Below, piece by piece: positions 20,801 through 57,206 of a DNA stretch of 64,000 nt (position 1 is the stretch's first letter; each line of letters begins with the position of its first letter). Location of the stretch: assembly GCA_004022145.1 (NCBI GenBank), contig RCNU01000006.1; one strand, 5' to 3'. Source of the stretch: Paecilomyces variotii. Its lineage: Eukaryota. The notes below the pieces were generated by a model. The model saw only the letters and a list, made by a program, of their open reading frames with translations, had not been told where the DNA came from and searched no databases. The position numbers were made by a program, and so were the translations under genes.

Positions 20801-21076
20801 AATCCTTAATAATTAATATATAAGCGCAGTTTATTATCTTTTTTAAGAATAAAAATAATTAGTAATTTAGCTAAGCTAGTTAAAGCCTAGATTTAATCTT
20901 ATTATTATATATTTTCTAAATATCTTTATAATATATCTAGTTCTCTAATAGAATATAGGTATAAAGGCTCCTATAGCAGTAACTTACTATTAATTAAATT
21001 AATTATATAGGTCTTAGTATCTTCTGGTAAAAGTAATATTTTAGCTCCCTCTTCTAAGAAGATATCTTAGAATTAT

Positions 21077-32286: not shown

Positions 32287-35200
32287 TATTATACCCCTAG
32301 CTCCCCGCTAGAGTATAAGCTCGCAGGACTATAGCGAAGCCCTAAATCTGAATATAATACTAAGATAATTAGTTAAACCTCGCTTTCTCTACTTTTAGGA
32401 TTTATATAAGATAAAGCTGGGAAGTACTTAAGATTTAGAATATAAATAAGCTCTAGATTACTATTTTACTAGAAGCTAGTAATTTATTCTAATATAATAT
32501 ATACCTTATTATTTCTTTACTTATATAGACTCTTTATTATTAGAACCCTTCGGTATAGACCCTTTATTATACTAGTTAGACCCTTTATTATAATAATTAA
32601 CCCTTTATCTCGCTAGTAAACCCTTTTTTAAGCTAAATATATAAAGCTACTATCTCTCTTACTATAATTACTAGCAGAGTAATTTATTAATAATCTCTAA
32701 GAATCCCTGTTTCTTATAATTCAGATTATTTAACCTAGCAATATAAGTAGCAGTATTAATATACCCTATAACTCAGGGGATAAAGGTCCTAGTACTTAGC
32801 CTATAATATATACTTTAAAGGGTTTAAAAAGCGCTAAATCTAGCTTACAGTAACTAATTACTAAAGCTAGCTTATAAACCCTAAGAGATATTTTAATAGG
32901 CCTAGGGATAAAATAAGCTTAAATAGAAGATAAACTATTAATAAAAAGAGATCTCTTATAGCTTCTTACCGCTAGTTATATTAATAAGCAGCTAAAGCTT
33001 AAGCTGCTAAAACTGCAAAGATATAAAGCTACTATATTTAATGCCTATTACTAATAATACTAGTATATAAATAAATATTTAACTTATAATGCTTTATTAT
33101 TTAAAGATAAAGCTAAGAAAGTTACTTATACTATAGTATTACTAGATAGAGAATTAGCTTAGTCTTAGATTTACTAGCAAGAGAATCCTAACTTTTAGAT
33201 ACTAACCTAGGAAGAATTTAAGGGTTAATTGCTAGATTTGCTTAATAATCTATATTACTAAAAATAAAATATAATAAACTACTTTTATACCTTAATCTAA
33301 TATTCTAATTAAACTGCTTAAACTTTCTTATACTATTTTAAGTAGGCTTAAGCAGAGTTAAATTAGGGTAAAGAGTTTAATAATAATAGAATTATCTAAT
33401 TTTATATCTTCTACATAAAATTATAACTTAAGGTTTAAATAAAATTGCTGAACTATTAAGACCTCTTAATTAATCTTAACTAATTAGTATCTTTAGCTAC
33501 TAATTAGGAAATAAATTAAAAGAAGAATAAACTCTTAAATCTCTCTATTACGCTAAATATAAGTAGACTAATATAGAGTATGCTAAAAGACTCTATTTTA
33601 AGGTAAAAGAGGAAGGAGATTAATAACTAGTGCGAGGGGATAAATAAATTCTAGAAAAAAAAGTTTAAATTACTAGCAGAATAAGACTAGCTTAAATAAG
33701 AAGGCCGCTGCTTTAATTATAATAAAAAAGATTATATATAGAGGTTTAAATTATGCCTAAAAAAGAAAGATTCTCTTAAAAAAAAAAGCCCGAGATTATT
33801 ATAGCCCTTTATAATAAAGGGTTTAAGATAAATAAAAAGTCTTTATATATTCTAATATAACTTTACCTATCTAATAATATATTTAAAAATAAGGCTTTTA
33901 TTAATTTAGGTTTAGCTTAATACTATATTAGCTTAGATATAGCTATATAATATAGAATTCCCCTAGACTTCTAGCAATATATAAACTTTAAATCTATTAA
34001 TAGGCATAAGATTTAGAAGTATAGATTCTTTAAAACAGAGATCTATATTACTAATTTTAAAGGAACTATAGAGAAAACAGATATATACTTTTATATTATC
34101 TTAATATCTAAATTATTTATTATCCTTAGGAAATTATAATTATAAGCTATTAATCCTATTATAAATTAAGAATTAATAACTTAGAGATATTATATTCTAT
34201 AATAGCTATAGGTAAAGATTAAAAATATTTAATAATTCTCTAAGATAGTAAAAGGAGAAATAATTTATATACTCTATAAGGATTAAATTAACCCTATAGC
34301 CTTAAAGAACCTGCCTTTAGAATATAAGAAATATACAGAGGTTTTTTTAAAAAAAAAATAAGTATATTACCTGCTAAAATAAATAAATACAAGATTAAGC
34401 TCTTAGACAGTATAGCACCTCTATAGGGGAGACTTTATAATCTCTCTATTAAAAAACTTAATATTTTATATAAATATCTTAAAGATATATAATAAAAAGA
34501 GTAGATATAATTATTAATAAGTCTTATAGAGGCACTTATTCTATTTATTCTAAAGGCAGATAATATACTAAGGCTTTATATTAACTATAGAGCTTTAAAT
34601 AGTATTATTATAAAAAACAGATATTCTTTATCTAGAGTAAATAAAATACTTAACTAATTAGTTGGCTCTAAGATCTTTACTAAACTTAATCTTAGGGACA
34701 CTTATTATTAGATTTAAATCTGCTAAAGAGATAAATAGAAAATAGCCTTTTAAACCTATTATAAATATTTTAAATATTTAGTAATACTGTTTAGCCTATG
34801 CAATACGCCTGCTACTTTTTAAGCCTATATTAATTAGGCATTGCAGGGGTTATTAAATATCTATTACATTATATATTTAGATAATATTTTAATCTTCTCT
34901 AACTCTATTAAGGAGTATAAGAGATATATAATATAGGTCTTAGAGAGGCTATAAGAATATAAATTATATATAAAATTATCTAAATATAAATTCTATAAGG
35001 AGAATTAAATTCCTTAATTTTTTTATAAGAAAAGATAAAATAAAAATAGATTTTAGCAGAATAGAAACTATTAGAGACTAGCTAGAGCTTAAATTCTTTA
35101 AGAAAATCTAAATCTTCTTAAGATTCGCCAGTTTTTTTAAAAGATTTATCTACAACTACTTTATAAAAATAGCTCTCCTAATTAATCTATTAAAAGAAAG

Positions 35201-38200
35201 CATCTAAGAGAAAAAAATTAAGATATTTATTTAAACTAGAGAAGCCGCGAAGGTATTTAATAAGCTAAAATTAGCTTTTATAACTCTATTAATGCTAAGA
35301 TATTTTAATCTAGAGAAGCTAATAATATTAGCAACTAATATCTTAGAATTTACCCTTATTACTATACTTCTTTAAGGAAATAGTAATAAGATAGCTCTAG
35401 GCGCTAGGTTAGAGACAGGTCTAAGAATTAGAACCTAGATAGATTAATAAACTATATCTAAGAACTAGTACCTTATAGTATATTATGCCCAAAAGTTTAT
35501 TAAAATAAAGGTATATTATAAGGTCTATAACTAAAAACTCCTGGCTATTATTAATACTTTTAAATATTAGTATTACTATCTAGAAAGTAATAGGTACCCT
35601 ATATAAATATAGAGTAATTATATAAATTTATGCTATTTTTTTACTATAAAAATATTAAATAATAGATAAGCTTAGTAGGCAGAATTATTAGCAGTATATA
35701 ACTTTTAAATTAAATATAAGCTAAGATAGCTTAATATTATAGATACTCTATTTAAAAAGGCAGATTTTAAACTATTTAAATCTAAATCCTAAATAAAATT
35801 ACTTCTAACCTTTTAGAAAAAGCTTTAGTATAAAGCTTAGAATAAGTATATATAAGAAAGTAATCTAGAGTATAAACCTATTAAAGCAGGCAGTACAGGT
35901 AGTCTAGAATATTTAATATAAAGAATATTAGTTATTAAAATAATTAGAGAAGAGTCTATTTAGAATACTATAACTCTTAGCCTGCTCTTTATATTAAAAT
36001 AGCTTTAAATAAGAGATACCTTTATTTTAGAGAAAATTAGAGAACTAAAAGTATATACTCCTAGAGATAGCTTAAAGATAATATAAAGAATAGATAATAA
36101 AAAATTATTGCAGAAAAATAATATTATATTTATACTAGATATACCTGCTATAAAATAAAAACTCTTTTAAATATATTATAATAACCTTTATATAGGGCAC
36201 TAAAATATTAAGAAGATTAAAAAGCTGTTTTAAAGAAGATTTAACTAGCTTAAGATAATACAAGATATATAAGAATATATATTTATATATAATATCTGCT
36301 AAAGAAATTAAGCTCTATAATATAAGCTATATAAAGAGCTAAAGTCTCTGCTAATCTTAGCACAGCTATAATAAAATATCTTAATAGATTTTATAATAAA
36401 ACTGCTGCTATTAAAAAAATAGGAAGTTATTTATAATTTAATATTAATAATTATAGACTATTATTTAAAGATAATACTCTATATTCTTATTTATAAAATA
36501 TTAAAAGTAGATAAGATAATTAACCTTATTATAAATTATATCTATAACCGCTTTAAATCTCTATAATTAATTATATTAAATAAGGGGGCGCTGTTTATTA
36601 ATAAATACTAGATAGAACTTTACTGCTATATTTAAATTATTAGATTTTTAAATACTATATTCTACCTCTAGACTAATAGCTAGACTAAAAGGCAGAACTA
36701 GATACTAAAATATTACCTCTAGGTCTACTTAAACTATAAGTAAGATAATTAGGTATTTTTATTAACTATGGCGGAGTTTATATATAATAATTTAATCTAT
36801 ATCTTTATAGGTATAATTCCCTTCTATATTATCTATAGATTTAATTTTAAAAGTTAAGATAAATATAACTTTAGGAAGTAAATAAATATACTAGCAGTTA
36901 ATAATTAATTAAAGAAACTTACTAAAATATATATTTAATTAGAAGAATCTTTTTAAAAGGCTATTACTGCGCAATAGAAGTATTATAATAAAAAATATAA
37001 GCTTAAATTCTATATAGTAGGAGACTAAGTCTGCCTTTTAATAAAGAATTTAAAGACAGATTAACTAATTAAAAAATTAGATATAAAATACTTAGAATCT
37101 TATAAAGTTATAAAGAGAATTAGAACTTAAGCTTATTAGCTTAAGCTCCTAAAAAGCCTAAGTAAAATATATTTAATCTTCTATATCTCCCTATTAGAGC
37201 CCTATTATTAAAGACTTAGGGCTAAATCTAAATATCTAGACCTAATCTTAGTAGATAATAAACTAGAATAGGAGATTAAAGCTATTCTAGATAAATAGAT
37301 AATATAAAGGAAGAAGTAATATTTAATTAAATAAAAGGGCTATTTAGATTATAAAAATTTATAGCAGCTTAAGGAGGATCTTAAATATATCTAAGATATA
37401 CTAGCTAAATTTAAGGTAATAGCGCAAGTTATTAATAAGACCTCTTTAAGAAAGGCTTTAAAAAGCTCTAAAAAAAGAAGTTAATAGAATTAGTAAGATT
37501 TCCCTTTTTTCCTACTAGATTTTTAGGTTTTATTTAATTATTTTATTATTAAATTTATATTACTTTTTCTCTATTTACCTATTTATAGAGGTTTAGGAGT
37601 TTTAATAAGGATATAAAAAGCTAGTCTATCTAGAAATAAATTTATTTTAACTAGGCTACCTCTAATAGGAACTAAAAATATAGGCTTAAGATTAATCCCC
37701 TCTATTTATCTACTTTACTATTATAGAACCCTATTAGTATAAATTTATCTTCCTTTTTATTAGAAAAAGGAGGAATATTATAAGTAATATATATAATTTC
37801 TTATATATGCTGCAGATCTAATATTATTAAATAAAATAATTTAAGCAACTTTTACTAAAGCTATATTATAAACTATTTATATAAAGATAAGGTTAATAAG
37901 ATAGTAAATATAAGCTTATCTATATCTGCCTTAATAAGCGTTTTATATAGATATATCTCTATAGAGGATTTATATTTATTATAGGCCTCTTTAAAAGACT
38001 TATAATTATTTAAAAAGTAAGCCTCTCAGCTAAGGCTTTATAGATAAGTAAGCTTATCCTTATAAACTAATAGGACTAGAATATAAGGCTTATATTTATA
38101 ATTATAGTAATTGTATTTAATATTAATATTAGTATAAGTATACTAAAGTACTAAATTCTTAATTAGCCCTTTTAAATAATAAAGGTATATCTTTTAAAGT

Positions 38201-39800
38201 ATTAAAAGAAACTTCTTACTTAGCTAAAAGATAATAGGGCTATTTTTTATTATTATATTAATAATAGCAATAATAATAATCTTAACTAATATTTTAATAA
38301 TAATTAGTTTAGTCTAGGTCCTTATATTAATAACCTTCTTATATCTTATGCTTTATCTCTAGGGCCTTTTTATAATATAAATAAGAGTTACTTTTAGTTT
38401 AGCTATAATAGCTAGCCTAATAATAAAATAAGTCCTCTTCCTCTTTAGTAGGCTTTTTAGCGCTATTATTAAGTTAAATAAACTTATTTATATAATAGCT
38501 AAGACTATAAAAAAAGGCTAATTTAGTAGAGATATAAACCTTCTATATCTTAATTCTAGTATAATATTTGTTTTAGCTAATAGATCCTCTATAAGACCTA
38601 AGATAAATAAAGATATTAATCTATTAATAGCTATAAAAGAGGTAATATTTATTTAAAGAGGCAGTTTCTTTAGTATTATAATAATAGCTAAAGTCTTTAA
38701 TATCTTAGCAATAATTAAGAGATTATTTTCTAATATTATAGTAGTAACTAGATTTAGCTATATTATAATAATAATAGCTATATCCTCTATCTTAGAAGTA
38801 GAAGAAGGGGATAATTTCTTAAAAGGGGAGGTAATATCCTTAGACTATTAATACTATAAAAATTAGTATATAATATATAAAATCTTATACTAGAATATTT
38901 ATTTAAGGAGTCTTCTTATATTGTTTAGATATAAAATAAATTTAAGGCAGCATTATCTAAATTAAATTAGCTTATATTAATATAGTTAATTAAGATAACT
39001 TACCTCTAAAGCAGGAAGCTCTAAAAATTAATAAAAAAATAACTAATTTCTTAAGTTTAATAAATTATTATACTGTTAGTATAATTATAACCTTAAAAAT
39101 ATATCTAGATCTTTATTTAAATATATTTAAGATTAGGAGCTATATATAGTAGAAGGTAGGAAGATAATTACTAGGGATTAGAATTCTAACCTTATAATAT
39201 TATATAAATAATACTTCTAGTTTATATAATTTCTTAACCCTTTACTATAAAAGCAGTAAGAAGCTTTTTTATTTATTATATTATAAACCTCTATAAAGCT
39301 ATACTCTATATTCGATATAATAACTTTATAATGGCTTAAGGATAAGCTTTTAAAAAGGAGGAGAATACTATTATACCCTTAGCTCCCCGCTAGGGTATAA
39401 GCTTATGGGACTATAATAAAGCCCTAAATCTAAATATAATACTAAGATAATTAATTAAACCCCGCTCTCCCTACTTTTAGGATTTATATAAGATAAAGCT
39501 AAGAAATGCTTAAGATTTAGAATATAAATAGGCTTTAAATTACTATCTTATTAAAAGCTAGCAATCTGTTCTAATATAATATATACTCTATTATTTCTTT
39601 ACTTATATAGACTCTTTATTACTAAAACTCTCTAGCATAGACTCTTTATTATACTAGTTAGACCCTTTATTATAATAATTAATCCTTTGTTTTACTAATA
39701 GATTCTTCTCTAAGTTAAATATATAAAGCTACTATCTCTCTCGCTATAATCGCTGGCGGAGTAATTTATTAGTAACCTCTAGAAACCCCCGTTTCTTACA
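32287..39800 (+). mobile_element. Ty3/Gypsy family B, copy 2 (7514 bp), RIP-inactivated
   Basis: 432-bp LTRs at 32287-32718 and 39369-39800. TSD ATAAT. YLDDI at ~34874. Chromodomain-like EWEIEAILDK at ~37265. Colinear with the reverse complement of B1. Confidence 0.95.
37642..38466 (-). pseudogene. Antisense accessory gene of Gypsy B2, RIP'd
   Basis: Same length as, and alignable to, the reverse complement of 22411-23235. Confidence 0.7.
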
Positions 39801-41099
39801 ATAATCTTCTTTATAATATTAAAGATATTTTTAATTTTTAGTAGTTTAAGGATATCTTTAAGTAAGAGTTAAAGCTTATAAGAATTATATAAGATAAAGA
39901 AAGTAGTATTTAATCCCCTTATTCTCTATAGGATTATCTATACTAATCTTATAGTATTATAGGTATTATTAATAAAAGAGTTAATTTTTTTCTAGTTAAA
40001 ATTATTATCTAAGATTAATTTAATCTTTTTATATATTTAGTTTATAATTACCTCTATATTTATTATTTAAGATCTAATATCCTAGCTATAGTAATAGAAT
40101 ATATATTTGCTATTAATTAGCGAGAGGTTTATAATTTATTAATTGTATATATTAGTAGTAAACTAATTATATAGGTAGTTCGGTTCGGTTTAGGAGAGAG
40201 TTAGACTACCTATAGCGGGTTTTAGTTTAGGGTAAGAAAACTATACTTAAACTAAACTATATTCTGGCGGTTTAGTTTAAAACTAAAAAAACTAAAATAT
40301 TCGCTAAGACTGGGCGCTAAACTAACTTAAGTTAGATTTTTCTTAAACGGTTCGGTTTAAATAGTTTATACAGTTTATAGTATTAAAGGTATTAATATTC
40401 TATATTATTTTATATTATTATTAAATTTATATTCTTTTAAATCTATAGCTAAAAAATAGTTTAGATATAATATTATTATATTAAATCTAAAAGTATAAAG
40501 ATAGTCTTTTAAGATATTATTAAATATTAATATAGACTTTAAAATAATTATTATAGAAATATATATATATATTTATAAACTATAGTGCTAATAGAGTATT
40601 ATTAAATAATATATATAATTTATTATAAAAGCTAAAGTTATTAAACTAAAGAATAGATTTTATTTACTATTATTATTCTTAATAAAAAGTAATTTCTAGA
40701 TTATTCTTTTAATAAGTTAATAGTAAAATCTATATATAATTAGTAAGTTATAACTTCTATAGAAAATATATAAATTCTATATATTTATAAAGCTTACTAA
40801 AATTCTAACTTAAGTTTAAACTACTAAGATTATATTATTTTTATAGCTATTTTTTTTTATCTAAATATAGTTTTTAAGTTAAATATTATTCTTTTATAAT
40901 AGATAATCCCCTAATTAAGCTATTTAATGTAGCTATTCTATTGTAAATTGCAGATACTTATTTTGCCTCGATTTAGCTCTATTAATATAATACTATAATA
41001 ATAAAACTAAAGTCTTTTTTCTTACTAATTTCAAGAAATAATTCTATGCTAAAAAAAGAAATTAATATAATTATTTTTAGCTAAAATCTTGTAGATTAT

Positions 41100-44000
41100 A
41101 ATCCTAAATTATAAGATACTTTCCTTTACTATTTAAAGAAGTAATTAAAGCAATCCCCTAAATATGCTAGAATTATTTATCCTAAATTAAATTAGCTACT
41201 TATATTTTTATTAATGTATTAAATATAATAAACTAGATTATTTAATACTTTTTTGCGGTAGACTATAAGTAGAAATATATATCTTGCATATTAATATCAG
41301 GCAATAAAATTTACTAATTTGCCTTTTAAGTAGTATTAGGAAAAGAAAAAAAATAAAAATAAATATAAAGGTATTTCTTAATCTTATTAAGCTAAATAAG
41401 AAATATAATAATTTTAGATAAAGTAGTTTTAGGATTAGTAAAGATATTCTTAGGAATAATTAAATTAATCTTAACAATAACTATTATAACCTAGGGCTAA
41501 TATCTTTCTTTTTTAAAGGCGAATTGAATAAGATAGTTTTAAAAAAGAAATATTAAGATTTTATAAAGCAATAGTTAAAAAAAATTATAAGTTATTTATT
41601 ATTATAATAGCTCTAGATACAGAAAGTAGTTTAGATAAATAATTTAAGCTAAAAAAAAGCATTTTAATTTAAGTTAGAATATATTAAAAGATTATACTTA
41701 AAGTATTTAGCGCTATTTTAGCTATATTACTAAATAAACCGACTATTACCTATATATAACTTAGCCTATAAAGGAATAAGATAAATAATAAGTATTATAT
41801 GCTAATCTTTTAATTAAGTATACTTAATTAAAACCTAAGAATTTAAAGCATCTTTAAGATACTACTATAAGCTATTAAGAAAAAAATATAAGTAATAAGT
41901 TATTATAAGATATTACTAATAGTAGAGATAATAATAAATTAAATATATAATAGACCTATTTATAATTTAACTTAAGTTAGAATTTATAAATTTAGTCTTT
42001 AAAAAGTAGATAAAGCTTATTTATTTAATTAGCGGTAATTTTATTAATAATAGTTAACTAGAGCAGTAATAAAATAATTAATAAGGGAGCCTAGGGAGTC
42101 TCTAATATTATATACCTATATATATATAATTTCCTAATTAGGTATAGTCTATATTAGGAGTATATATATTATATTATTTTTTCTTTTATTATATTTATTT
42201 CTTTTATTAAATATACTTTTTAATAAAAAGAGTAGATTTTAATCTAGTTAGAATTTAATTAAGGAACTTTAAGTAAGGAATAGCATATAGACTAAATAAC
42301 AATCTAACTTAAGTTAGATTATTTTTAAGGATATAAGGGAAGATTATTATATACTACTATAAGTTACTAACCCTATTATAATTAAAATTCTAACTTAAGT
42401 TAAAGGCTCTATAACTTTACTTATTAGAGAGATAATATAAATAATAAAAGTATTTATTAGATAATAAGACAAATTCTCTAGAATTTTAGTATAGAGAACT
42501 TAGCTAAAAGCATTAATAAAAGAGACTTAAGGCTTATAATTATAGCAATTCTATAGAACCCTATTTAGATTTTAAGCTTATTTAGATTAATATACTATAT
42601 AAGCCGAAGGCTTATATAGCTAAGGCTAGAGTTTTCTTAATAATAAGAAATAATATAATCTATACAGAGCTTAAGAATAAATATCTAGGAATATTATATA
42701 TAAATATAAAGAAGCTTAAAATGTCTTAGAAAGATATAGAATATAATTAAGATATTAACACTAATTATATTAAAAACTTAAAGAATAAGTTCCGCATTAA
42801 TATACAGAGATTTAATATTAATATATAAATAAAAGCGACCCTAAATACTAAAGACTTTAACTTAATATTATAGGCATATATAGCAGAATTATTAGAACTA
42901 GTAAATATTAGTAATATCTATAGTCTCTTAAGGCAGCAGTAAGGTAGAGATAATAACTTTTTTATCTATTTAAAGAAATAGTTAGAAGGGCTTATATTGC
43001 TAATATTATAAGCTAGGCAATATTATTATATAGCTCTTCTAAAGCTGCTAATTAAATAGAAAAAAATAGCTATTATTAAAGCTATTAATTATAAAGGAAA
43101 GATAATTAAAAGACTATAGGCTAATATATATCCCTATTTTAATTTAAGTTAGAATTTAGCTAATTAATCTATAGGTATATCTCTAGGCTATTAACCTCTA
43201 TAATAAGGTAATATTATTAGAAGTTCTTACAGCATTATAATCTAATTATAAAGATATTACTTATATTAATATTAATAAAGAATATATATTCTTATTTATT
43301 AAGGAGTAGGAGAAGAAACTTATAGATTAATATAAGAAACTACTAAAAAACTATAAAAAGTTTAAAAATTAGGCGCGCCTTATTATTAGTATATTACTTA
43401 ACTATATAACTTATATTATAGCCCTTTTATATAATAATATTTAATTATAATATTTGCGGGAGTATTTATAAATAGCTTATAATTACTCTTATTAAAACTA
43501 TATATTAAGAGAGATAATTATAAATATAAAGCTAGATTAGGTATATTTAGGGATCTAATTTTAATTTTAATTTTTTAACTTAAATTAGATCTAGATTATA
43601 GAATTTAAGAAGTTTTTTAGCTTTATTAAGATAATCTTTATAAATAAGTAGAGTAGAGTAGTATTAGTAGAGGATTAAAAACTAATTATTAAATATTATT
43701 ATAGCGCGAGCAATTATACTTTATATATATTATTCTTTCTTTTATAGGCAGATTATAAAAATAATAGATTTAAGCTATCTCTAAATTATAGGTAGTTTAA
43801 TAAATAATTATTACCTTATTTAAAGATTCCTATACTATCTCTTAAGAACCCTATTTAATAACTATCTTTCCTTATAGCCCTACTAGATAAAGCATATATA
43901 TAAATATAGAAGAATGTTTTAGAGAATAGAGAACTTAAGTTCCCCTTATAATAAGTTCTAACTTAAGTTAGATATAAAAATTAATTATAAACTAATTATT

Positions 44001-45750
44001 ATAAGAGCTTATAGATTAATCTTAATAATAAAATTAGTCTCTTATTAAAATTTATGCTAAAATATATTATATTCTAATATAATCTAGAATAGTAATATTT
44101 TACTACAGCCTTTAAATATCTTTAAAAATTTTAGTAGATAAATAAATTTTAATATTCTCTCTTTTATAAGTCTAATAATATATATACTGCTAAGGGCTTT
44201 ATAGAAAAACTTATTAATAAGCTTTATAAGAACTCCCTATAAACCTAGGCAGATTTAAAGCATTATATAATAACCTTATTTAATTATAATTAGAATTAAT
44301 ACTAATATCTTTTAGCTGCTAGAACTATATAATAATCTCTATTTCTAAGATATTAAGGAATAAGATAGTTATAACTAATAGTATATATATCTTTCTTATT
44401 TTAAGCGGCGCTATTAAGCCTATATTCTCTATATAACTTCTAAAGCAATCTTACTTAACTTTAAGAGTATTATAAATTAATTTAATAATAAGAGCGAGAT
44501 TATAAGTCTAGATTATTTTAACTTAAGTTAAAATTAATATAATATAAGATAAATAACTTTCTATTTTTATTGCCTTTAGTAGTATTATATAATAAGCCTA
44601 ATTTTAATATAATAATATAGTAAAAAACTTAAGAATCTTAAAAGTTAATTAATATAAGGATAATTTAAAGACTTAATCTAATATTATTAGAGCTCTATAG
44701 ATATATTAATCTATTAAGAGAAGTATAGTTTATATTATAAAGCTTAGCTTCTTTAAGACCAATAATTATAAGAAGGATTCTAAGAATCTTATTAAGACTA
44801 AGGTATATATGCTATTAATCTAATTTAAGTTAAAAATTAACTTAATTTAAGAGGAATAATATTAGTGCTTATAGGCACTAAAAGAGATCGCCGATTTTTT
44901 AATTAAGTAGGACTGGGCTCTAGATATAGATAATATAAATAAATATCTGCGGCGCTTTATACTAGACTATAATCTTAAAATTAAGAATAAATATACTGCT
45001 TAAAAGAAGTTATATATACCTTTTTTAACCTTATTAAACTAACTGCTAATAAATAAATACTCTTATAATAATAATAAGGAATAATATAAGTTAAAAAATT
45101 AGAAATAGCTCTAAGCTATTATTTTTAATACCTTAAGGAAGAAATAGAAAATATTAAAGAATTCTATAAATAAATAAATTAATATATTTATTCTAACTAA
45201 AGTTAGAATAAGATTTAATTAAAATTCTAGATTAAGATATAGAGACTAATAAGGTAAATAATATATTTTAAAAGAATAGTATAGATAATAATAATAAAGG
45301 TAAATTATTTTTCTTATTAATTATATTATTAAATAATTATAATAATACTATTATTATAAGTATAAGAGTAAGGCTAAATTTTTAGTTTAGATTTAAGTTT
45401 TTTAGTTTAGCTTTAAATAAGCTATCTTAATAGTATTTGCTTAGTATATAAGAAACTAACTTAAGTTAGAAATAAAATAATTAAGTTTTTTTTAGACTAA
45501 TAATATAATCTCTACTTCTAAATTAAATTATTTAAGAGTAATTTTCCTTTAATAATAAGAACTTATATTATTTAGAAGCTTTATCTCTAACTTAAGTTAG
45601 AGTAAATTCTACTAATAGGATAGAAATTAGTTCTTAAAGATTTAATTTAAGTTAATATAGCTATTACTTCTTATTTCTATTTTAGGATAATAATTAGAGA
45701 TAAAAAAGCAGGACTATAAAGATAGGGACTATAGAATAGAAGAAAAAAAT
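41100..45750 (+). pseudogene. Multi-exon cargo gene(s) of the inner hAT, with ParB/DUF3723-like motifs; boundaries approximate
   Basis: De-RIP reading NRDIDxDHVKNLKxKF (~42745), LQAGQHRxxALL (43006-43041), then after intron 43126-43174 YLWAIDLYD...L..LRSN...DGE. A further coding-like exon EIADFLIKQDWALD lies at ~44885. Confidence 0.55.
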
Positions 45751-45949
45751 AGTATATTTTAATAATCTAGGCTAGCTCTATAGTAATCTGAGATATAAAT
45801 ATATTTAAGCAAGAATTTAACTTAAATTAGAATACTATAGATATTATGCCGCCGCCAATATTATTATTTTTAAATTTCTTCTTCTCCTTGCTTTACTCTA
45901 ATAGAGATATATTAGGATTATTAAGTCTTTTATTATAGTTTTAGAATTA

Positions 45950-48599
45950 TATTATTTATACTCTTATAAAGATTTATAAAACTTCTTTATCTTTAAATAC
46001 TAATATCTAGGATATAAATTTTAATTATAATCTTATTAAATAATATAAGCCCTAATCTAAAGCTAATACTCCTAACTTAACTAAACTTAAGATAATAAGA
46101 TATAATTAAGGAAAGGCTATTATCTATCTAGCTCTTCTAGAATAAGTTTAGATTTTTAAATTTTAATAAAATAAAACAGAATTTATAAAATAATAGTCTA
46201 AGTTTTAATAGATAAAAATAAAGACTTAATTATATATATAATAATACTATTAAGAAATTATAAATAATATTTTTAGTGTCTCTTATATATAATATTTATA
46301 TTGCTCTATATTTCTTTAATATCCTTATAAAGGAGGAAATAGTATTAGCTTAATAGCCGCCTATATAAAAAGAGCTATATACTAATCTAAAGATAAGACT
46401 TAGAAAAATAATAATATTTAAAATATATTAATTATAAAAGTAAGAACTAGGTAATTAATATAGACTTTATTACTAATATTTTTTTTAAAAAACTTTTAAT
46501 CTAATATATATATTAAATGTATTATATAATTAGATCCTGTATTTTATTATAGGATATTGCTAATTATTTTAAATAATTAAATATATTTAGTTCTGCTATA
46601 TGTTATATATAGCTGCTAGTAATTTATATCTAGAGTTACTTAACTAATATTAGATTTAAGCATGCCTTTTTAAATTTAAGGAGATTAATTATACTAAAAT
46701 ACTGTTATATTTATTAGAGTAAGGAAAGATTTCTCTAATATTAGATTATTAGACTAGTTAAAGTTAATATTCTTTTCTTACTATAACTAGATATTTTATT
46801 AATATAAAATAAGTATATAGGGAAGTACTCTTAGCCTTTAATCCTGTCTATAAATTATATACTAAAAAAAACTTAGCTAAAATATTACTAAAAAATCTTT
46901 ATTAATATAATTTATAATATCAAATCCTTATTATTACTATAAATAATATAAATAATAATATTATCCTAATAGCGGAGCTAGATAAAAGCCTAAAGGGTAA
47001 GCTTAAAATAGATTTATTATTAGAAGATTTCTAAGATATAATATTAAATTAACTTATTTCAAATTGCTATTATATTCTATATTTAGTATATGTTTTATAA
47101 CTTATAGTTAATGTTTTACTAAGTAAACTCTATATTAATACTCCTATTAATAATAGTATTAGTTAGAATATAAAAAAGGATAAAGGCCTATTATATTCTT
47201 AGGGTATCTTAATATTATTAAAAAAGGTATTCTCTATTTAACTTAAGTTAGATTAATACTAATAGATTTCTATATAGGTTTGCAAAATTATTAGATTTAT
47301 TAATATAAGCTCTTAGTATTAGGAATATTTCTTAATATTATAATAATTAAGTATTAGTTAGCTAAAATTATTACTTCTTAATTACTAGATATAATAGAAT
47401 TTAATATATCTTATACTTATATATACCCTTAAACTATATATAGTAATTGGACGATTTATTATATTATAGGCTAATAAAAATGTTTATTTTCTAATATTAT
47501 CCCCTACTAAATAATATTAGGTTAAATATCTTATTAAGTTAACCTGGCCATTTTATAATCTTACTCTCGCCGTATTAAAGATAAATAGTCTATTAGTTTA
47601 TAGGGTTTTTAAAATCTATAATACTATCTTTAATTATTTTAATAATTATATAGAGCATTTAAAATTAAAAAGAGCTGTATAGAAGATTTAACTCTAAGAT
47701 ACTTTATCTAAAGCTTATAATAAATTACGAACTTATTATACTTATATATATAAATCTTAAGGATTTATATATATAATTGCAATAATTCTTTACCCCAATA
47801 TAAAACTTAAATATTTTAAAATTTAGGTCTAGTAAGATATAATAAAAAACTAGTATAATACTTATAAAAAGATTTTTTATAAGATATTTTAATACTATAA
47901 TAATTAAAATCTAAATATTAAGGTATAATTAGGAATCTATTTATTAATCTTAACCTTAGATTATGTGTTTATATAATCTAAATATTATTATCTCCCTTTA
48001 AATATTACTAGTACTTATTAAGAAATTTAGACTTATCTTACTAAAGGTAATATTCTATCTAATATTATATCTAAATTATATAGTATTATTCTAACTTAAG
48101 TTAGATTAAGTTTATTAGAATTAGATAATATCTTTAACTATTAGAGAATTAATAAATACTAATTCCTAATTTTTATAATAATAGCCCGAGATTTTCTTAT
48201 AATTCTATTAAGTAGTATTAATATAGAATAATTATTTAATAATACCTGAAATATCTGCTATTACTAATATAGCTAACTACTTCCTAATATAATCTATACT
48301 TTAATACTTCTTATATATATTAAAAATTTTATTATTTAGCAGGAATTTAAGGTAATAATTAATAATATAGATATAATACCTAATAATTAACAATCTAAAA
48401 GGGAGGAGATTAAATCGCTAAATCTAATTAGTAATAATAAGGATATAGATAATATATTAGAAGGAGAAATAAATATAGATAATAAAGATTATTAGATAGA
48501 GCAGTTTAGGGGTTAAGGTCTTTTAAATATTTAAATAGATTAACCTATTACTAAATCTACTTATAATAAAAGAGAATAATTAGATAAATTACCTATACC
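45950..48599 (+). pseudogene. hAT transposase (Restless/Tfo1-like), RIP'd, with introns; start approximate
   Basis: De-RIP GKISLxLDCWTS...FLAxTGYFID...YREVLLAF...HTGENLA...ITTDNAxNN (46723-46960), IPCLAHVLQL (~47074), and YW...FP..MARDFLAIP.SGVGVERLFN.ARDICHYRR (48140-48270). Confidence 0.87.
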
Positions 48600-51500
48600 T
48601 ATTATAGTACTAGCATAGGAGATAGAGATCTACTAGTTAATGCTTACATAAGGCATTATGTAACCTCGCAAAGATATCTTCGACGCATAGCTTAATCTAA
48701 ATTTAAGCTCTTTAAGCTATATCTTATTTACTAAGCCTGCCTGCAACAGCCTATTCTAGTCTAAATTAGCTAAATAGAGATCCTATAGCTAATCCTAGTA
48801 TTAACTACCTTATTCTATTTATTCTGACCCGCTTCTTAAGCCTATACCTTAACACTATATAGCTTCTACCTAGGAGTTAATACTGTTAATAATACCTGCC
48901 CTAATTCCCCTATTCCTGCTAATAACTCTAGGAAAGTTTATTAAGCATATTACTGCTAGCTATAGGCCAGAATAGTATAATTATTATTGCCTGGCATATA
49001 AATATATTAATAAAGCTGAGACTACTGCGAATAAGATAAATTATTAGGCCGAGGTATATTTTTAAGAGCTTTAGTAAGAATTTACTATTATTTAACAGAG
49101 ACTTAAATAAGAAGTTATTAAACTTAAGACTATCTAGTAATATTAAAAGACCCAGCTCTAAGAAAAAGAACAGCAATATATCTAGACTATTCTTAAGAAG
49201 GATTAGGCCTATTATATAGTTATACCTACTGTAAATATATCTCTATTTATATCTAAATCTAAGCCTAATATTAAGAGGCCTATAACTACTCTAATAGGAA
49301 TATCTAAGATACTTACTACTATATCTTCCTCCGCTTTTAGATTTTTAGAAAGACTCTCTAACTTTAATAAGTTTAAAGGCGATTAAAAGGACCTTTAGCG
49401 CTTTATAGCCTAGATCTAAGGGAAAATAATAATTAACTAAGACTAATTCCCGATTTCCCAGAGCTGTATAACTTATATAATTAACCGCTTAAAGGGTACG
49501 CCCTATACCTAAATATTGCTATATATTAGAAATAGAACTTGCACTCTTAGTAACTACTAAGAGATTCTAGATATTTTAGAGCGTATATTTAGTAATCTTA
49601 ATTATGTAAATAATATATATAGCAAATTATTTAATCTCTATTAGATTAATAAAGAATTTAGAATTTTCTTTACTAAGTTCTAGTGCCTGGCGCTAGAAGG
49701 AGAAATACTTAAAGGAATACTATCTACCCTGCTTAAGTAAGCTATTAGTTAAGAACTCTGAGAAATATTATTATATAATTAGCCCCTAAATTATAAATAT
49801 TACTAGTTTATTAAATTCCTGTAAGATCTTAAGAACTGTTATTGCTAATATATTATAAACTAGCCCCCTATTATAAAGACTTATACTGCTATTTTAAAAC
49901 CTATTTAGCATACTTAATCTCCCTTGCCTGCTCTAAGTCTTGCTCTAATTATAAGATATAATAATTAGTCCTGGAGAAGCCTTATATAGAAGAGTAAATT
50001 AGCCCTGGCATAATTATATAACTTAATAAACCTAAGCACTTCTAAATACCCGGGCAAGAGAGGGTATAGCCTATTATACTATAAAACTAGCGCCTACTTT
50101 TACTGCGGCTTCTTAAAATATTATATTAAAGACTACCTATACTTAAATAACTGCTAGAAGATCTAGACTATAGCTATATATAAACCCTATCCCCAGACTC
50201 CCTAAGTAATCTAGTTCTTAAACTTATGTAGTTTATTCCCTAGCCAGTCTTTAATAAAAAGAATAAGCCTAAAGTAAGTTATAGCCAGGCTTAAGAACTA
50301 TATATTATCTAAATCTCTGCCGCTGTTATTTATAAAATTAACCTTAAGAAATACCTATAATAATTGAAATTAATAATACTATTTATAATATTAGAAAAGA
50401 AGAAGAAGAAGATTTACCTACTGATTTATGCCCTGCTTAATACTAGAGCTAAAAGATAAGAATTTATAGACTAAGGATAGGCTAAAGACTAGAAGTTAGA
50501 GCTTATCCTTCTAAAGAGCCTAATTACCCTATATATATTTAATAAAAGAGAATTAAAGAATAGGAAGATTATATACTATATCTAGATAGATATAAGAATT
50601 AAGGATTATTTTAAGAAAGATACTAAGTTCTATATTATCTAATTAGCGCACTACCCTATTATTCTAGGACTCTTCTAATTAAAGTACTATAATCTATATT
50701 TACAATTTGCCGCCTATAGTATTGCTTTTAATAGTAATTATTATTAAAAGAATTATAATATACCCTTAAAGCTAATTAAAATACCCGCCTTATATAATAT
50801 TCCCCTAAAGGCTTTGCCTTAATACCTACTCCTAAGACCTAGAGGACTAGAAAAGAGAAATATAGCCTTTATTTCTCTAGCCGCTTATTCTGCCTATACT
50901 TAAAAAAATGCTTAAATATTTATAATTATCCTAGAGGACCTAGATACTGCTCTAAGGATTAAATAAGTCTAAGAAGAAGACTTTGCCTACTTACTGCCCA
51001 AGGAGTTTAAGAATTATATTAATATCTTTTCTCCTAAGAAGGCTAAGCGCCTGCTATTATATTATTTTTATAATTATAATATTAAGCTACTAGAGGAGAA
51101 GTTACTCTCCTTTAAATCTCTATATACTATATTCTAGGATAAATTAAAGGTCCTAAAAGAATAAATTAAAAAAAACTTAAGAAAGGGATTTATCTATCTA
51201 AGCTTATTACCTACCGCATCCCTAATTTTATTTATTAAGAAGTCTGGTAAAGGAATATAGATTTATATAGATTATTAAGCCCTGAATATAATAACTATTA
51301 AAGACTAATATCTCTTACCTCTAACTAAGGAGACCCTAAATAACCTAAAAGGAATAAAGTATTTTATAAAGATTAATATTATTTCCGCATTTAATAACCT
51401 CTATATTAAGAAAGGATAAGAATACTTAACTGCCTTCTATATCTAACTTAGCCTATTTAAATTATTAGTAATATTATTTAGCTTAATAGAAGTACTAGCA

Positions 51501-54500
51501 ATATTTTAATAGTTTATTAATAATACCCTATAAGATTATCTTAATATCTTTTATATTATATACCTTAACAATATCTTAGTATATAGTATAACCCATTCTA
51601 AATATATCTAATATATCTGCACTATCCTGTAAAAGCTATATAAAATAAGCCTATATATAAAGATCTAGAAGTGCGAGTTTATTATCTCTAAGACTAAATT
51701 CTTAGGCATTATTATTAGCCGGGATTGTATTAAGATAGACCTAAATAAGATAAAAATAATTACTAAATAGAAGACCCCGACCTATATAATTAATATATAA
51801 GCCTTTATTAAGTTTAGCAACTTTTACTGTTAGTTTATTTATAACTTTTCTAAGATAATCGCACCGCTTATAAACTTAACCTAGAAAAGAATCCCCTTTA
51901 ATTAGATATCTGCCTATTAGTCTAGTTTTAAAGCCCTGAAAAAAGTATTTGTTTAAGCCCTAATCCTAAAACTATTTAACTGGACCTATAAGGTTATAAT
52001 TAAAACTAACTTATCTAACTATATATTAGCTAGAGTTATATCCTAATATAATAATAAAGGAATTCTATATTCTATTATATTTTTCTTAAAGAAGCTCTTT
52101 GCTATAGAGTATAATTATAAGATTTATAATAAAGAGCTGTTAGCAATTATCTGCTGCTTTAAAAAATAATGCCCTAAGCTTAAAAGTATACTATCGCCAA
52201 TTAAAGTTATTACAGACTATTATAACCTGAAATATTTTATATTAATTAAGCTGCTAAACTAATAATAGGCCTATTAATCTAAGTTTTTATCCTAGTTTAA
52301 TTTCTGAATTGTATACTAACCTAGAAGGTAAGAAATAAAGCCTAACGCCCTAACCAGGAGGTTAGAAAATCTCCTTAAGGAGGGGGATAAACAGCTACAA
52401 TATTAGAGCCAGACAGTCTTAAAGAAGGAGAATCTTAACCTATAGATTTAAAGATCCCTAAAATTAAAAGCTATTATTAGAAATTAAATAATAAGATATA
52501 TTCGCTTCGCTAATCTAATAGTTTAAAAGATTAAAAATCCTGCTAAATCTATAAGAATATCTGCCTAATCTGCTTTAAAAAATTAACCTATTTAGCCTAG
52601 AGAACCTGTCTAGCCTACCCTGCTGCCTAACTAGTCTATTAAAATTATTTAACCTACTGAGAAGATAATCTAGTCTATTAAAAAGACTATTTAGCCTATT
52701 AAAGAAATAGCCTAGCCTATTAAATAAAACTAGTTAAGTTCCCCTACTGCGCCCAATAAACTAAAATACTTGCCTAATATTAAAGACCTGCTAAATATAG
52801 CTTACTTATCTAATAACTTAATATAATTTATCCTGCAAGCCTTAGATTATAAAGCTAACTATTATTCTAAGATTACGCTAGCTAACTACTAGTAAAAAGA
52901 AAGATATCTATACTATAAAGACCGCCTATATATTCTTAACTATAATAAGCTAAGAGCCTGCCTATTGTAAGAATGCTATAATAAGTATATATTTAAATAC
53001 CCTAGAAAATATAAGCTTTATAATTTAATCTTACAAGAGTATTACTAGCTAAATATATACTAATATATAGACTATTAGACCCAGAATTACTATACCTGCT
53101 ACTATATTATACCCTTAAATAAAGGCTGCTAAGGAGTCTTATACTAGCTTTCTATCTCTAAATACTCTTAGTAAGATATCTTAATAGATTTTATTATTAG
53201 ACTTATATCTTGCTAAGGTTATAATGCTATATTAGTTACTATAGACTAACTTATAAAGATAAAATATTTTATTCCCTGCCAGGCTATCTGTAATATTAAA
53301 AGAGTAGCATAATTATATATTTACTATATATAGAAGCTTTATAGGCTACTAAAGATTATAATATCTAACTAAAGCCTTTAATTTATTGCTACTTTCTAGA
53401 AATACCTAACTTAATATTTAGATATTATAAACTTACTATTTACTACTTACTATCCTAAGACTAATAATTAGATTAAGAGGATAAATACTATCCTGGAACA
53501 ATACCTATATGCCTATATTAGCTATCTATAAGATAACTAGATTAACTAGCTATCTCTAGCTAAGTTCGCGTTAAACTCCTATTGTTCTAAGACTACTAAA
53601 ATATTACCCTTCTTTACTAATTATAGATTTTATCTATATATAGGATTTAAGCCTATCTAGCCTATAAACTAGCCTACTACTAGAGATACTAAAGCCTTTA
53701 CTAAAAAAATATAAGATATTATAAATTATATTTATACCTAGATTTATACTGCTTAAGCCTATTATAAAGAGCAGACTAACTACTGTTAAACCCCAGCCTG
53801 CTGCTACTATATAGGATAATCTATCTAATTAGATACTTAGAATATTTATATTTAGCGCCTCTAGAAGAAACTTAACTAGAAGAATCTTAGCCTATTTTAT
53901 ATTACTAAAATTATTAGCCTATATGCCTATTAGCTTAATCTACCTATCTTAATATATATCTATCCTATATTTAATATTAGCCTGCTTCGCCCTATTATTA
54001 AAAACCTTATGCCTAGATAAAGATAACCTTTACTACTGCCCGTTAAAGTTAATAGCCTTAAAGAATAAGTTATTAAAGATATCTTAGACTCCCAATAAGA
54101 ATATTATAAGTATAAAGGCCCCCGACTATAATATACTATTAAATAGTTAGGTTATAATAACCTAATTAAAGAGCCCATATATTACCTATAGTATACCCTA
54201 GAAATTATTACTAACTTCTACTACTACTATTTAAATAAGCTAAAGCTAGAGAATAGTCTTAATAAAGCTTAACCCTAAAGAGGGGAGTATTATTATAATG
54301 CCAGTATAGGAGATAGAGATTTACTAGTTAATACTTATATAAGGTATTATATAACCTCACGAAGATATCTTTAACATATAGCTCAATTTAAATTTAAGCT
54401 CTTTAAGCTATATCTTGTTTACTAAGCCTGCCTGCAATAGCCCGTTCTAGTCTGAATTAGCTAGATAAAGATCTTGTAGCTAGTCCTAGTATTAACTACC

Positions 54501-54545
54501 TTATTCTATTTGTTCTGACCTGTTTCCTGAGCCCGTACCTTAACA
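48600..54545 (+). mobile_element. Ty3/Gypsy chromovirus family C (5946 bp), RIP-inactivated, no accessory ORF
   Basis: 255-bp LTRs at 48600-48854 and 54291-54545. TSD ATACC. PPT AAAGAGGGGAG. Gag knuckle at ~50095, YLDDI at ~51561, chromodomain at ~54060-54230 directly before the PPT. Confidence 0.94.
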
Positions 54546-57206
54546 ATACCTAGAGTTTCTATATATTCTTAAAGGAACGCAGTAATTATAAATAAATCTA
54601 AGTCTTCTAGTTATTATTTACGCTAAATTAACTATATTAAAGGCTAATATAAATATTAAGAATCTAACTTAAGTTAGACTCTAATATTATATTCTAATAT
54701 TATTCTATTAATTTTTAGTTAATATTTAGTAATAAATATTATAAAGAAATAAAAATCTAAATAGTTCTTAAAGATTAATAAGATTTATATAAAAATTCAG
54801 ATTAATCTAAAGTAACTAAAAAAAACTAAAAAAACCGAATTAAACTAAAAAACCCAAAAAACTAAACCTAAAAAAACCATATAGTGCACTATAAACTATC
54901 AGTTCGGTTTATAAAGTCTATAAACCGTTCCGGTTTATAAAATTATAAACCGAACCAAACTATAGGCGGTTCGGTTCGGTTTAGTTCGGTTTTTTTAGTT
55001 TTCTATAACTACTCTAATTAGTAGTCTTATTATAAATAATATTTAGATAATTACTTAATTTTAGTATTATATTAATCTCTTAGAAAACTTATTTATAATA
55101 TTTATTTAAAATAAGACTTGCTATTATATAATAATTAAGAGGCTTATAATTTTAATCTAGAGCAGTAATAAAGTCTAGAATTATTAGTTCTATATATAGA
55201 TTAAAGGATCTAGTATTTGTAAAAATTAATATTTTATATCTTTAATTTAACCTATATCTTAATTTAAAAGCTAGAATATTAGCTAATAATAAGAATTATA
55301 TAGGCCTTTTAATTACTAGTTTAGGATTATAAATTGCTTTCTAAGATTTATAGCAGGTAAAGTATTTAGCTTAATAAGTAGTATTTTTTATAATCTTCTT
55401 ACTGTAGTAAAGGTATTATATTTATAGCTTAAAAAATAGTTAAATTAGCTAATAGTAGTATATTTAAATAAAATAGATCTTATTATTTTTAAGGAAGTTT
55501 TTAAATGCTTTCTAAACTTTAGTAAGATAAGCTCTGCTTTTAAAAGAGTTAGTATTACCTATTATTAATAGTTTTAGGGTATAGTATACTAGTTAGAATC
55601 TAAAATAAATATAAATATATATAAAATCAATAGCTTCTGCTTAAATTCCTAGTTATCAGGTAAAAAGTTTTATTAAATTATAAAAATAGGGCAATATAAG
55701 CATTTACACTTATCTATTGGTTAAACCTCTTGTTTAACTATCTACTTTTATACTAGCGTATTCCACTAATTAGTCTATGCGTTTTAAATTTTGAAACGAA
55801 AAAAAAGGGCGAAATTTCACGTTTCGTGAAATAGACCCCCCATTTCAATATTTCACCATCCCTAGCTTGGGCTATTGGCTGTGGGAGCGGTTGTAAGATT
55901 CCGAGGCCTCCGATGACAGGGATCGTTGATCCTTTATTCCGTGGATCGCCGAAATAGATCTACATACATGGTCTGCTCGATTTCCAGGGTTCCTTTTTCT
56001 CCCTTTCTTTTTTTTTTCTCCGAGACGACTTTGCTAAATTTTCTAGTCTGCCGGACAAGTGGGGAAGTACGAGTGTCTTACGCAAGTCTAGATAGCGGAG
56101 GTTCTTGTCCTGGTAGCGATGCACGCGACGCGAGGCTTTATGGATGCTCGAAATGTGGATGAATCCACTGGTACTTGCATGTACCCATGAGAAATTAGTA
56201 GACTAGAGAAAAAAAAAATGGTATAACGGAATCCCGCTCATGCCCAATATACGCGGCCCTAATGCTGAAGTTTCGAAATGAGGAAGATGAATTCGGCAAC
56301 CAGGACACCTCAGTTGATACGACCCAGACCATGTTGTAGCCAAGAGACGGATGTCTAAAATCTGGGAACCATAGTAAAACAACATGGATGGCATGCAAAA
56401 GACGCTAGGGTCGGAGATCATTTCTCATACAGCCTGGCATTGACCATCTGTATTCACCAATTTTTATTCCTCGGCGCACACCCTCGTTCCCAAAGAAGAA
56501 AAGCAAATGCGAAGTAATGCGCCAAGCGCCTGTGTCACCAAAAAGAACCAACCCGCCGGACACATGATCACCCACAGATTAACCTCATGAATTCCCGCTC
56601 CGAATAACGCCGGACAGTGACAAATGAAAATGAATCCACAGGAAAGACGGTAGAATATGTTTTGGATAATGTCCAGAAGTATGAAAAAGAGAAAAGGCGT
56701 CGAGCTAATGGCTTGCTAAAAAAGAGAAAAAGCAAATGGAATCACGGTAGCAGAAATATGCTCGGATTAGTGGCATGCAGCGCGGAGACCCGACTGCGTG
56801 CCTAGCAAGGCTGGACAGCATTGAAGCGCTGTGCTGAGCCTGCACAAGGCTATTACGAGGTCTCCGTGGCGGACGTGCAGTGCCTGATGTATTGGTCGGA
56901 ACCGACATATGGACAACCAAGCGCAGAGCGCTGGCCATCGAGTATATCTGAAGTAGATAATGATCGGTGTATACAAGGCCAACCGTCCAGTTCCAGTGGA
57001 TCGGGAGCCGGGTAACATCGGTCGCGGCCGCGATAATTAGATCATCATATACGTGGACCAGCCGATTCTGATCATACCGGTCATGGTCAATGCGTGAGGG
57101 GTATATGCATCCTGTCAAGGGCATGAAGAGGTGGTAGATGAGGTGATCAGAGGCGAAGTCGCGCGGACGCGAAGGAACAGCAGGAATGAGACGTGCTCTC
57201 ATGGTT

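Follow-up and report, generated by a model that had tools for sequence, protein, structure and literature searches.

We analyzed a stretch of 64,000 nt of the Paecilomyces variotii genome (contig RCNU01000006.1 of assembly GCA_004022145.1), here referred to as the window. It contains a degraded transposon of the hAT superfamily which carries 19 copies of the motif TCTAACTTAAGTTAGA, a perfect dyad of 16 bp. The window consists of two flanks of normal GC content (1–15 kb and 56–64 kb) around an AT-rich block of approximately 41 kb with a GC content of 0.18 to 0.27. The hAT element is located within this block and has been heavily altered through repeat-induced point mutation (RIP). TpA accounted for 21.6% of its dinucleotides, the TpA/ApT ratio was 1.34 and the (CpA+TpG)/(ApC+GpT) ratio was 0.26. 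A long terminal repeat (LTR) retroelement is nested in the hAT and is RIP-mutated as well; its LTRs are 263 nt in size and 86% identical. Once this insertion is subtracted, the hAT has a size of about 8.8 kb. The element is arranged as follows:

40172..48599, + strand: left and central part of the hAT with 18 of the 19 palindromes; left end approximate (TAGGTAGTTCGGTTCGG...)
48600..54553: nested LTR retroelement (LTRs 48600–48862 and 54291–54553), which splits the last transposase exon and carries no palindrome
54554..54962, + strand: right part of the hAT, comprising the end of the transposase frame (C-terminus and stop codon), one palindrome and the subterminal repeats of the right side; right end approximate

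The end-like sequences near 40172 and 54962 are mutually inverted and are followed inward by GTTCGG/AACCGAAC repeats. The 8 nt outside of the approximate ends (TAATTATA and TAGGCGGT) do not match, and the positions of the termini are approximate.

A preliminary description of this locus had reported about 19 copies of the palindrome, and all of them were found to exist. The consensus TCTAACTTAAGTTAGA occurred five times without any mismatch in the window (42303, 43957, 45586, 48090 and 54663) but not once in 100 dinucleotide shuffles of the window, from which the chance level was taken. With up to three mismatches allowed, 21 matches were present compared to 2.02 ± 1.15 expected (shuffle maximum 5). 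Eighteen of the 21 correspond to the copies listed below, and the remaining ones at 21906, 38956 and 61741 have three mismatches each. Within the 8.8-kb hAT, 18 copies have two mismatches or fewer. The copy at 45641, which carries four RIP-type or outer changes, was recovered by a RIP-degenerate form of the pattern. In total, 24 of the 304 cells of the 19 aligned copies differed from the consensus. Of these 24 departures, 19 were C>T or G>A and fell on the four C/G positions, non-RIP changes were restricted to 5 of the 304 cells, and both arms of the palindrome were kept equally well. The individual copies are:

40321..40336: ACTAACTTAAGTTAGA; between subterminal repeats on the left side, ~150 nt inward of the left end
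40804..40819: 2 mismatches
41663..41678: 2 RIP-type mismatches
41966..41981: 1 mismatch; exact 8-nt direct repeat ATTTATAA on both sides
42303..42318: exact
42389..42404: 1 mismatch
43138..43153: 2 mismatches; the copy formerly proposed to lie in an intron of a cargo gene
43574..43589: 2 mismatches
43957..43972: exact; core fragment AACTTAAGTT 25 nt upstream at 43932
44517..44532: 2 mismatches
44819..44834: 2 mismatches
45192..45207: 1 non-RIP mismatch, at the center
45455..45470: 1 mismatch
45586..45601: exact
45641..45656: 4 mismatches, 3 of them RIP-type
45816..45831: 2 mismatches; 14 nt upstream of a ATGCCGCCGCC patch at 45846
47237..47252: in transposase intron 1; ORF P0002 of a relative stops on TAA 47239–47241
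48090..48105: exact; in transposase intron 2; ORF P0001 of the relative stops on the central TAA 48097–48099
54663..54678: exact; begins 3 nt past the stop codon of the transposase; part of a longer hairpin (54650–54690) as its core

The RIP-degenerate pattern matched 17 times in 40161–48599 and once in 54554–54960. No match was found in 15001–40160, 48600–54553 and 54961–55900, which comprise 25.2, 6.0 and 0.9 kb of RIP-mutated DNA, and none in both GC-normal flanks (23 kb). The proposed confinement to the inner hAT was therefore upheld, since the pattern is absent from the other ~32 kb of equally AT-rich, RIP-mutated DNA, where a similar density would have been at odds with it. Because the nested retroelement of 6.0 kb inside the hAT holds no copy, the motif belongs to the hAT and not to its neighborhood. 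A region with a GC content of ~0.19, in which TpA makes up 22% of the dinucleotides, might produce such words as a mere by-product of RIP or of low-complexity AT-rich DNA, without any real motif. However, the copies are lacking from the equally mutated ~32 kb including the nested retroelement, the shuffles yielded no exact copy, and an un-mutated relative of the element has stop codons at the same places (see below). We consider this explanation refuted and give it practically no credence.

The degraded hAT transposase is found in one frame on the + strand from 46600 onward. Degraded frames were read with X at stop codons; frames of 3000 aa gave no Pfam match even for the transposase, and short pieces were used instead. 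A phmmer search with the X-read transposase yielded 435 proteins at E ≤ 1e-3, among them 50 at ≤ 1e-10 and three at ≤ 1e-30. The Pfam families PF14372 (E 0.096) and PF05699 (E 0.011) were matched in the right order, both below their curated cut-offs because of RIP. Additionally, the frame aligned block by block with intact fungal hAT transposases, including the blocks DCWTS, TTDNASNN and ARD..P.S....ER.FS. By its predicted transposase, with an RNase-H-like core, the insertion and the C-terminal dimerization domain, the element belongs to the hAT superfamily. The gene is composed of:

46600..47226, + strand: exon, catalytic core region; P0002 maps to 46600–47238 (E 3.5e-63), and 46600 is not a mapped N-terminal limit
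47227..47277, + strand: intron 1, 51 nt, GT..AG; palindrome at +11 to +26
47278..48046, + strand: exon, hAT-like RNase-H insertion region (PF14372, E 0.096); P0001 maps to 47413–48096 (E 2.6e-73)
48047..48118, + strand: intron 2, 72 nt, GT..AG; palindrome at +44 to +59; CTAAC 24 nt from the 3' splice site
48119..48599, + strand: last exon, first part, hAT dimerization domain (PF05699, E 0.011); residues 1–140 of P0066 map to 48181–48600
54555..54659, + strand: last exon, final 34 codons and TAA (54657–54659), collinear with the C-terminus of P0066

Beyond the nested retroelement, the 34 codons from 54555 equal the C-terminus of P0066 residue for residue when RIP-type changes are set aside. In the distant relatives P0003 and P0011, the protein ends where the transposase of the window ends. 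At the other side of the gene, a frame opens in a GC-rich patch spared by RIP (ATGCCGCCGCC, 45846–45860), 14 nt beyond palindrome 45816. On its sequence, this patch may represent the start codon of the transposase. Its frame differs from the one at 46600, and a further, palindrome-free intron may therefore lie in between.

Compared to the spliced homologs P0004, P0007 and P0017, the frame of the window contains in-frame insertions of 17 (47227–47277) and 24 residues (48047–48118). Both are bordered by GT..AG, and their excision restores exact collinearity with the homologs. Judged by this comparison, both are true introns of the predicted transposase gene. To these two the former statement that the palindromes are located in introns applies. 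It does not apply to the copy at 54663, which lies 3 nt past the stop codon, nor to the copy at 40321, which is located among the subterminal repeats; both are outside of coding-region introns. All three definable non-coding slots of the transposase gene, namely the two introns and the start of the 3' untranslated region (UTR), are thus occupied by a palindrome. The GT(A) donors suggested at 42273, 43541 and 44803 exist as well. However, donor-like hexamers upstream of the copies showed no significant enrichment (present at 7 of the 19 copies on the + strand and at 3 on the - strand, where ~4 would be expected).

Both intron sites were surveyed in homologous fragments, of which 150 were fetched and 25 inspected. 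At site 1, 10 of the 25 break off no more than 18 residues past the conserved ..L(E/K)K-V, and at site 2, 8 of the 25 do so within 23 residues after ..YL.EG. The fragments P0003 and P0011 read the whole site-2 intron without any stop. As can be read directly from its sequence, none of the six frames of the motif is free of a stop codon. The read-through stretches of these distant relatives therefore cannot contain the palindrome. Since relatives share the intron sites but not the palindrome, the introns predate it, and the palindrome was acquired late, as a lineage-specific feature. In P0003 and P0011, the read-through insertions (~22–24 residues) have about the length of intron 2, so that the acquisition in this intron was not a plain insertion of 16 nt. 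The stops in six frames also make exonic copies impossible and leave introns or UTRs as the only places within genes. Therefore the location in introns by itself says little about the function.

The ORF fragments P0001, P0002 and P0066 are of normal composition and 54–58% identical to the X-read window (tblastn; 57–58% for P0001 and P0002). They were found solely in public run assemblies, on three to four contigs each, the longest of 8358 nt. Peptide-pattern scans revealed no relative for P0002 in metagenome contigs and none for P0001 in viral contigs. A letter-by-letter comparison of 45 codons showed 15 residue differences, for each of which C>T or G>A in the window can account, and the copy in the window is therefore a RIP-mutated member of the family of this relative. 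P0002 reads past the exon end at 47226 into the intron and terminates with ..VFSI-stop on 47239–47241, which is the TAA in the left arm of palindrome 47237. P0001 enters intron 2 and terminates with ..SIILT-stop at 48097–48099, the central TAA of palindrome 48090. As the ORFs of the un-mutated relative stop on the palindromes, the palindrome is older than the RIP.

This reading also bears on the ancestral form of the motif. The pre-RIP form TCYAACTCGAGTTRGA (with CTCGAG), suggested before, is ruled out at 48090, the one copy where the ancestor was testable, because the relative reads L-T-stop over CTA ACT TAA of the window. The same reading excludes an ancestral CCA in the arm and CGA at the center of this copy. 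At 47237, the stop of the relative on the arm codon excludes CAA there. An ancestor with CTGAC instead of CTAAC may have existed, since TpG is a prime target of RIP; CTGAC is likewise a branch-point consensus.

As described before, each strand of the motif reads CTAAC followed by YAG. This raises the question of a role at the RNA level. The palindrome would provide an optimal CTAAC branch point together with a stop codon in every frame, so that splicing is efficient and retained introns are targeted to nonsense-mediated decay, and the second arm would be preserved for the sake of a small hairpin that exposes the branch point or is recognized by an RNA-binding factor. The palindrome is present in both verified transposase introns, and stops are present in all three frames per strand. 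The introns are 51 and 72 nt long, both divisible by three, and their retention would be in frame but for the stops of the palindrome. In intron 2 the left arm is located at the exact distance of a branch point, its CTAAC 24 nt from the 3' splice site with no alternative candidate downstream, and in its read-through the distant P0003 has L-T at the corresponding position, which is compatible with an ancestral YTAAC. However, a strand-specific signal does not need a perfect dyad, yet both arms are equally conserved. The hairpin of the motif is weak (6 bp with a 4-nt loop), and the folds of the whole introns do not differ from shuffles (z 0.11 and -1.27). Intron 1 has a branch-point-like ACTAAT of its own, 17 nt from the 3' end, and in the distant relatives both introns are spliced even though they lack the palindrome. 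Furthermore, at least two copies (3' UTR and subterminal) are outside of coding-region introns, and the excess of donor-like hexamers on the + strand over the other strand was not significant. Altogether we regard a role in splicing or surveillance as rather unlikely, while it deserves to be kept in mind.

A longer, imperfect hairpin surrounds the copy at 54663 (54650–54690; -10.2 kcal/mol, z -4.1, none of 200 shuffles as stable). In this respect the copy is unlike the intronic ones.

The similarity between the copies ends at the motif. Complementarity of the flanks was 0.39 compared to a null value of 0.346 (p 0.10), so the dyad ends at 16 bp. Nucleotide identity between the flanks of the 19 copies was 0.360 (null 0.349 ± 0.009) and 0.512 in the purine/pyrimidine alphabet (null 0.501). 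No repeat structure was found between the copies, even in this alphabet, which is insensitive to RIP. The flanks matched as target duplications at 3.00 of 8 positions (null 2.81 ± 0.33), and a flanking direct repeat of at least 3 nt at the edge of the motif was present at one of the 19 copies (41966, with exactly 8 nt), while 1.5 were expected. The repeat ATTTATAA beside this copy (41958–41989) has the size of a hAT target duplication; by a rough estimate its chance is ~0.02 after multiple testing.

These data bear on a second alternative, a selfish mini-palindrome. Here a 16-bp unit would have spread by insertion, templated repair or short-tract gene conversion and would persist in harmless non-coding sites without a function for the transposon. 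Small palindromic elements are known from bacteria and fungal mitochondria, and the unit could be their equivalent in the nucleus; otherwise it could be the core, by now degenerate, of introner-like sister introns. That 19 near-identical 16-mers lie in otherwise unique sequence would fit well, as would the late acquisition indicated by the palindrome-free intron sites of distant relatives and the direct repeat at 41966. Proliferating fungal introns with a conserved internal palindrome of 10 nt are also on record in the available text of PMC8469720. However, there is no general target-site duplication: a direct repeat borders one copy of 19, and the flank match is at background. Intron 2 with its 72 nt is about as long as the insertions of the palindrome-free relatives, unlike the result of a simple 16-nt insertion, and both testable introns are ancient and not newly created. 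The motif is limited to one element within the window, and among at least 120 metagenome loci with the exact 16-mer there was no other array, none with more than two copies and none with a hAT relative. We therefore judge selfish copying to be unlikely. The propagation of whole introns from a common seed, previously offered as an alternative, is disfavored for the two testable introns, whose positions are shared with palindrome-free relatives, and the flanks of the 19 copies are unrelated.

The left arm of the element (40.3–46.6 kb) holds 16 copies; apart from the subterminal one at 40321, these are 15 copies spread over ~5.5 kb of unannotated DNA. Their spacing is more even than random (coefficient of variation 0.62 compared to 0.94 for the null, p 0.035), and no dip in GC content was observed around the copies. 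For this arm a ParB-like cargo protein had been suggested. Pfam scans of 40160–46600 on both strands, with X at stops and in pieces of 660–760 aa and 180–231 aa, detected no ParB family (PF02195 or related). A DUF5487 match (E 0.068) was judged to be noise. The cargo protein is thus unsupported, and so is its proposed intron at 43126–43174, where no coding frame could be established. Word-index protein searches and one profile-free search found no relative of the left arm, the word searches being partly saturated by low-complexity candidates. The lack of ParB is weak evidence, because RIP damage reduces the sensitivity; even the transposase domains reached only E 0.011 and 0.096. Trained on the transposase, a codon log-odds model lacked power even for the region from which it was built, and the purine/pyrimidine periodicity was uninformative (purine fractions of 0.535, 0.486 and 0.502 for the three positions of the codon). 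An array like parS, with a ParB-like protein from the left arm as its binder, would fit in form only, as a 16-bp perfect palindrome is present in many copies along one mobile element. No ParB/Srx family or other domain was found in the arm on either strand, however, and we consider such an array very improbable.

Based on the pre-RIP age, the confinement and the symmetry of the copies, we tentatively interpret TCTAACTTAAGTTAGA as a lineage-specific cis-element of one autonomous hAT family of ~8.8 kb and as a putative target of a protein that would bind DNA in the form of a symmetric dimer, a reading that we hold to be quite possible but short of probable. About 19 copies were already present before RIP killed this hAT. 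The palindrome would act at the DNA level as a sequence-specific site, and its binder could be encoded by the element, as the N-terminus of the transposase or an unrecognized product of the left arm, or could be a host protein. The presence in introns would be a by-product, as the six-frame stops permit survival within genes only in introns and UTRs. Introns may also have been favored as seeds, since their branch-point consensus CTAAC already is a half-site. Binding could result in synapsis or tethering of the element, in control of chromatin or expression, or in titration of the transposase.

Recognition of double-stranded DNA by a dimer is favored because both arms are strictly identical and the strand is indifferent, because copies are found in the UTR and the subterminal region as well, and because the RNA hairpin is weak and relatives splice the same introns without the palindrome. 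From the earlier proposal of a dyad protein-binding site scattered by introns, we can retain that the motif is element-specific, dyad-symmetric, restricted to non-coding positions and older than RIP; the binding of a protein is what we infer from these features.

Several points weigh against a dimer-bound DNA site. No candidate binding protein was identified, and the Pfam scans of the left arm revealed no other domain either, DNA-binding domains included. The subterminal GTTCGG repeats seem to fill the usual role in hAT transposase binding already. Arrays of binding sites are normally degenerate, and 19 near-identical 16-mers look more like copying than like selection. CTAAC with YAG in the motif, its presence in both introns and the 24-nt distance would fit a role at the RNA level. 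The setting is established for only four of the 19 copies (47237, 48090, 54663 and 40321). The more specific version, in which the transposon keeps an array of ~19 identical dyad sites for a dimeric protein of its own, for tethering, a partition-like function or synapsis analogous in form to parS/ParB, with introns as safe harbors by virtue of their half-site CTAAC, would be conceivable but appears doubtful.

In the surroundings of the element, the sequence directly past its right end (54963–55020) resembles the left end of another hAT (TAGGCGGTTCGGTTCGGTTTAG...). This is probably the outer hAT into or beside which the element was inserted. Further upstream in the window, 21072–25927 and 34950–39805 form an inverted duplication of 4.9 kb, 87% complementary, with additional pairs, both inverted and direct, in its surroundings. 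The arrangement has the appearance of two large, oppositely oriented retroelement copies together with other nested repeats. No Rfam family was matched in 40000–55200. Twenty sequencing runs contain part of the stretch, three of them with half or more of the sampled words; its shares in fermentation and grain metagenomes are small and permit no conclusion on habitat or strain.

The exact 16-mer was found at 120 or more loci in metagenome contigs and is single-copy in 116 among the matches listed. In contig L092 it is located in inverted repeats of 195 nt (3285–3479 and 10555–10749) around a large bacterial Ser/Thr-kinase/AAA/GAF/PAS/histidine-kinase gene and a LuxR-type response regulator; arms and both genes were shown for L092 only. 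Judged by its flanks, L106 (2777 and 10426) has the 16-mer in the same bacterial repeat, and the same flank is present in at least 15 single-copy loci (L005, L009, L020, L023, L031, L034, L068, L075, L088, L094, L096, L102, L104, L114 and L119). This repeat resembles a bacterial cassette that is mobile or undergoes recombination, and it has no relation to the fungal element. In the low-GC contigs L004, L016, L017, L042, L048, L057 and L091, the 16-mer forms the center of a longer palindrome (..CTTCTCTC-motif-GAGAGAAG..), which suggests a repeat of the foldback type.

Among known systems, the subterminal transposase-binding repeats of hAT elements can be compared. Those of Ac (AAACGG) and Hermes (GTGGC) are 5–8 bp in size, non-dyad and located within a few hundred bp of the ends. 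Like the palindrome, they are short motifs present many times in one hAT; they are bound by its transposase. Unlike them, the palindrome is 16 bp in size, symmetric and spread across the whole interior. Seventeen of the 19 copies are more than 600 nt away from either end, so they are not concentrated at the ends, whereas the GTTCGG repeats show the subterminal pattern here.

In bacteria, parS/ParB centromere arrays likewise place several copies of a perfect 16-bp palindrome on a mobile replicon. The likeness is one of form only. The element is located in a eukaryotic nuclear genome, and no ParB-like gene is detectable. Small dispersed palindromes are known as REP and RPE elements of bacteria and as GC or PstI palindromes of fungal mitochondria, where they occur genome-wide at non-coding or tolerant sites. 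The palindrome described here differs from these by its confinement, within the window, to a single nuclear transposon. Nor does it resemble miniature inverted-repeat or foldback elements, which carry a target-site duplication at each copy, as opposed to one of 19 here (null 1.5).

Short fungal spliceosomal introns that share an internal palindrome have been described for introner-like elements (cf. PMC3609843 and PMC4457414) and for the sister (stw)introns of Hypoxylaceae, which according to the available text of PMC8469720 contain the conserved palindrome WTTCTAGAAA. These sister introns are similar over their whole length, carry inverted repeats of 45–55 nt and occupy newly gained positions in host genes (PMC8469720). 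In the element, in contrast, the similarity covers no more than 16 bp, both introns that could be tested are ancient, copies are present outside of introns as well and all are found in one transposon. Similarity of whole introns is lacking (flank identity 0.360 compared to 0.349 ± 0.009), and the positions are not newly gained, since 10 and 8 of the 25 fragments break off at the same two sites. Ancient introns which gained a common motif late are the reverse of the introner model, and this bears on the question of how introns come to share sequence.

Large cargo-bearing hATs of fungi are comparable in overall organization. Examples are the ~9.5-kb hAT of Pseudocercospora which carries a histone H3 gene (PMC6710886) and the hAT7 of rusts with a TET/JBP gene (PMC12730594). 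As far as the available parts of both sources show, these elements are likewise autonomous, longer than the usual 3–5 kb, extended by extra DNA upstream of the transposase and heavily affected by RIP. They differ in that the same parts report no internal repeated motif; in PMC6710886 it is stated that no direct or inverted repeats were identified. In the hAT of the window no cargo domain is recognizable, and the extra DNA is instead studded with one palindrome.

A full-text literature search with the 14-nt core of the motif gave no match, and the top-ranked matches of searches by topic contained, in the text available, no description of the motif or of an equivalent array. An internal dyad array of this kind appears to be unprecedented for a hAT. 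The finding is directly testable, because un-mutated relatives exist in public assemblies. If a DNA-level function is true, a transposon can place signals inside its own genes while the coding sequence remains untouched, and introns would be selectable for their DNA content. If selfish copying is true, no self-copying palindromic unit smaller than this 16-mer would be known from the nuclear genome of a fungus. The cis-elements of transposons are normally thought to be terminal, and an array of a strict palindrome along the entire element departs from that.

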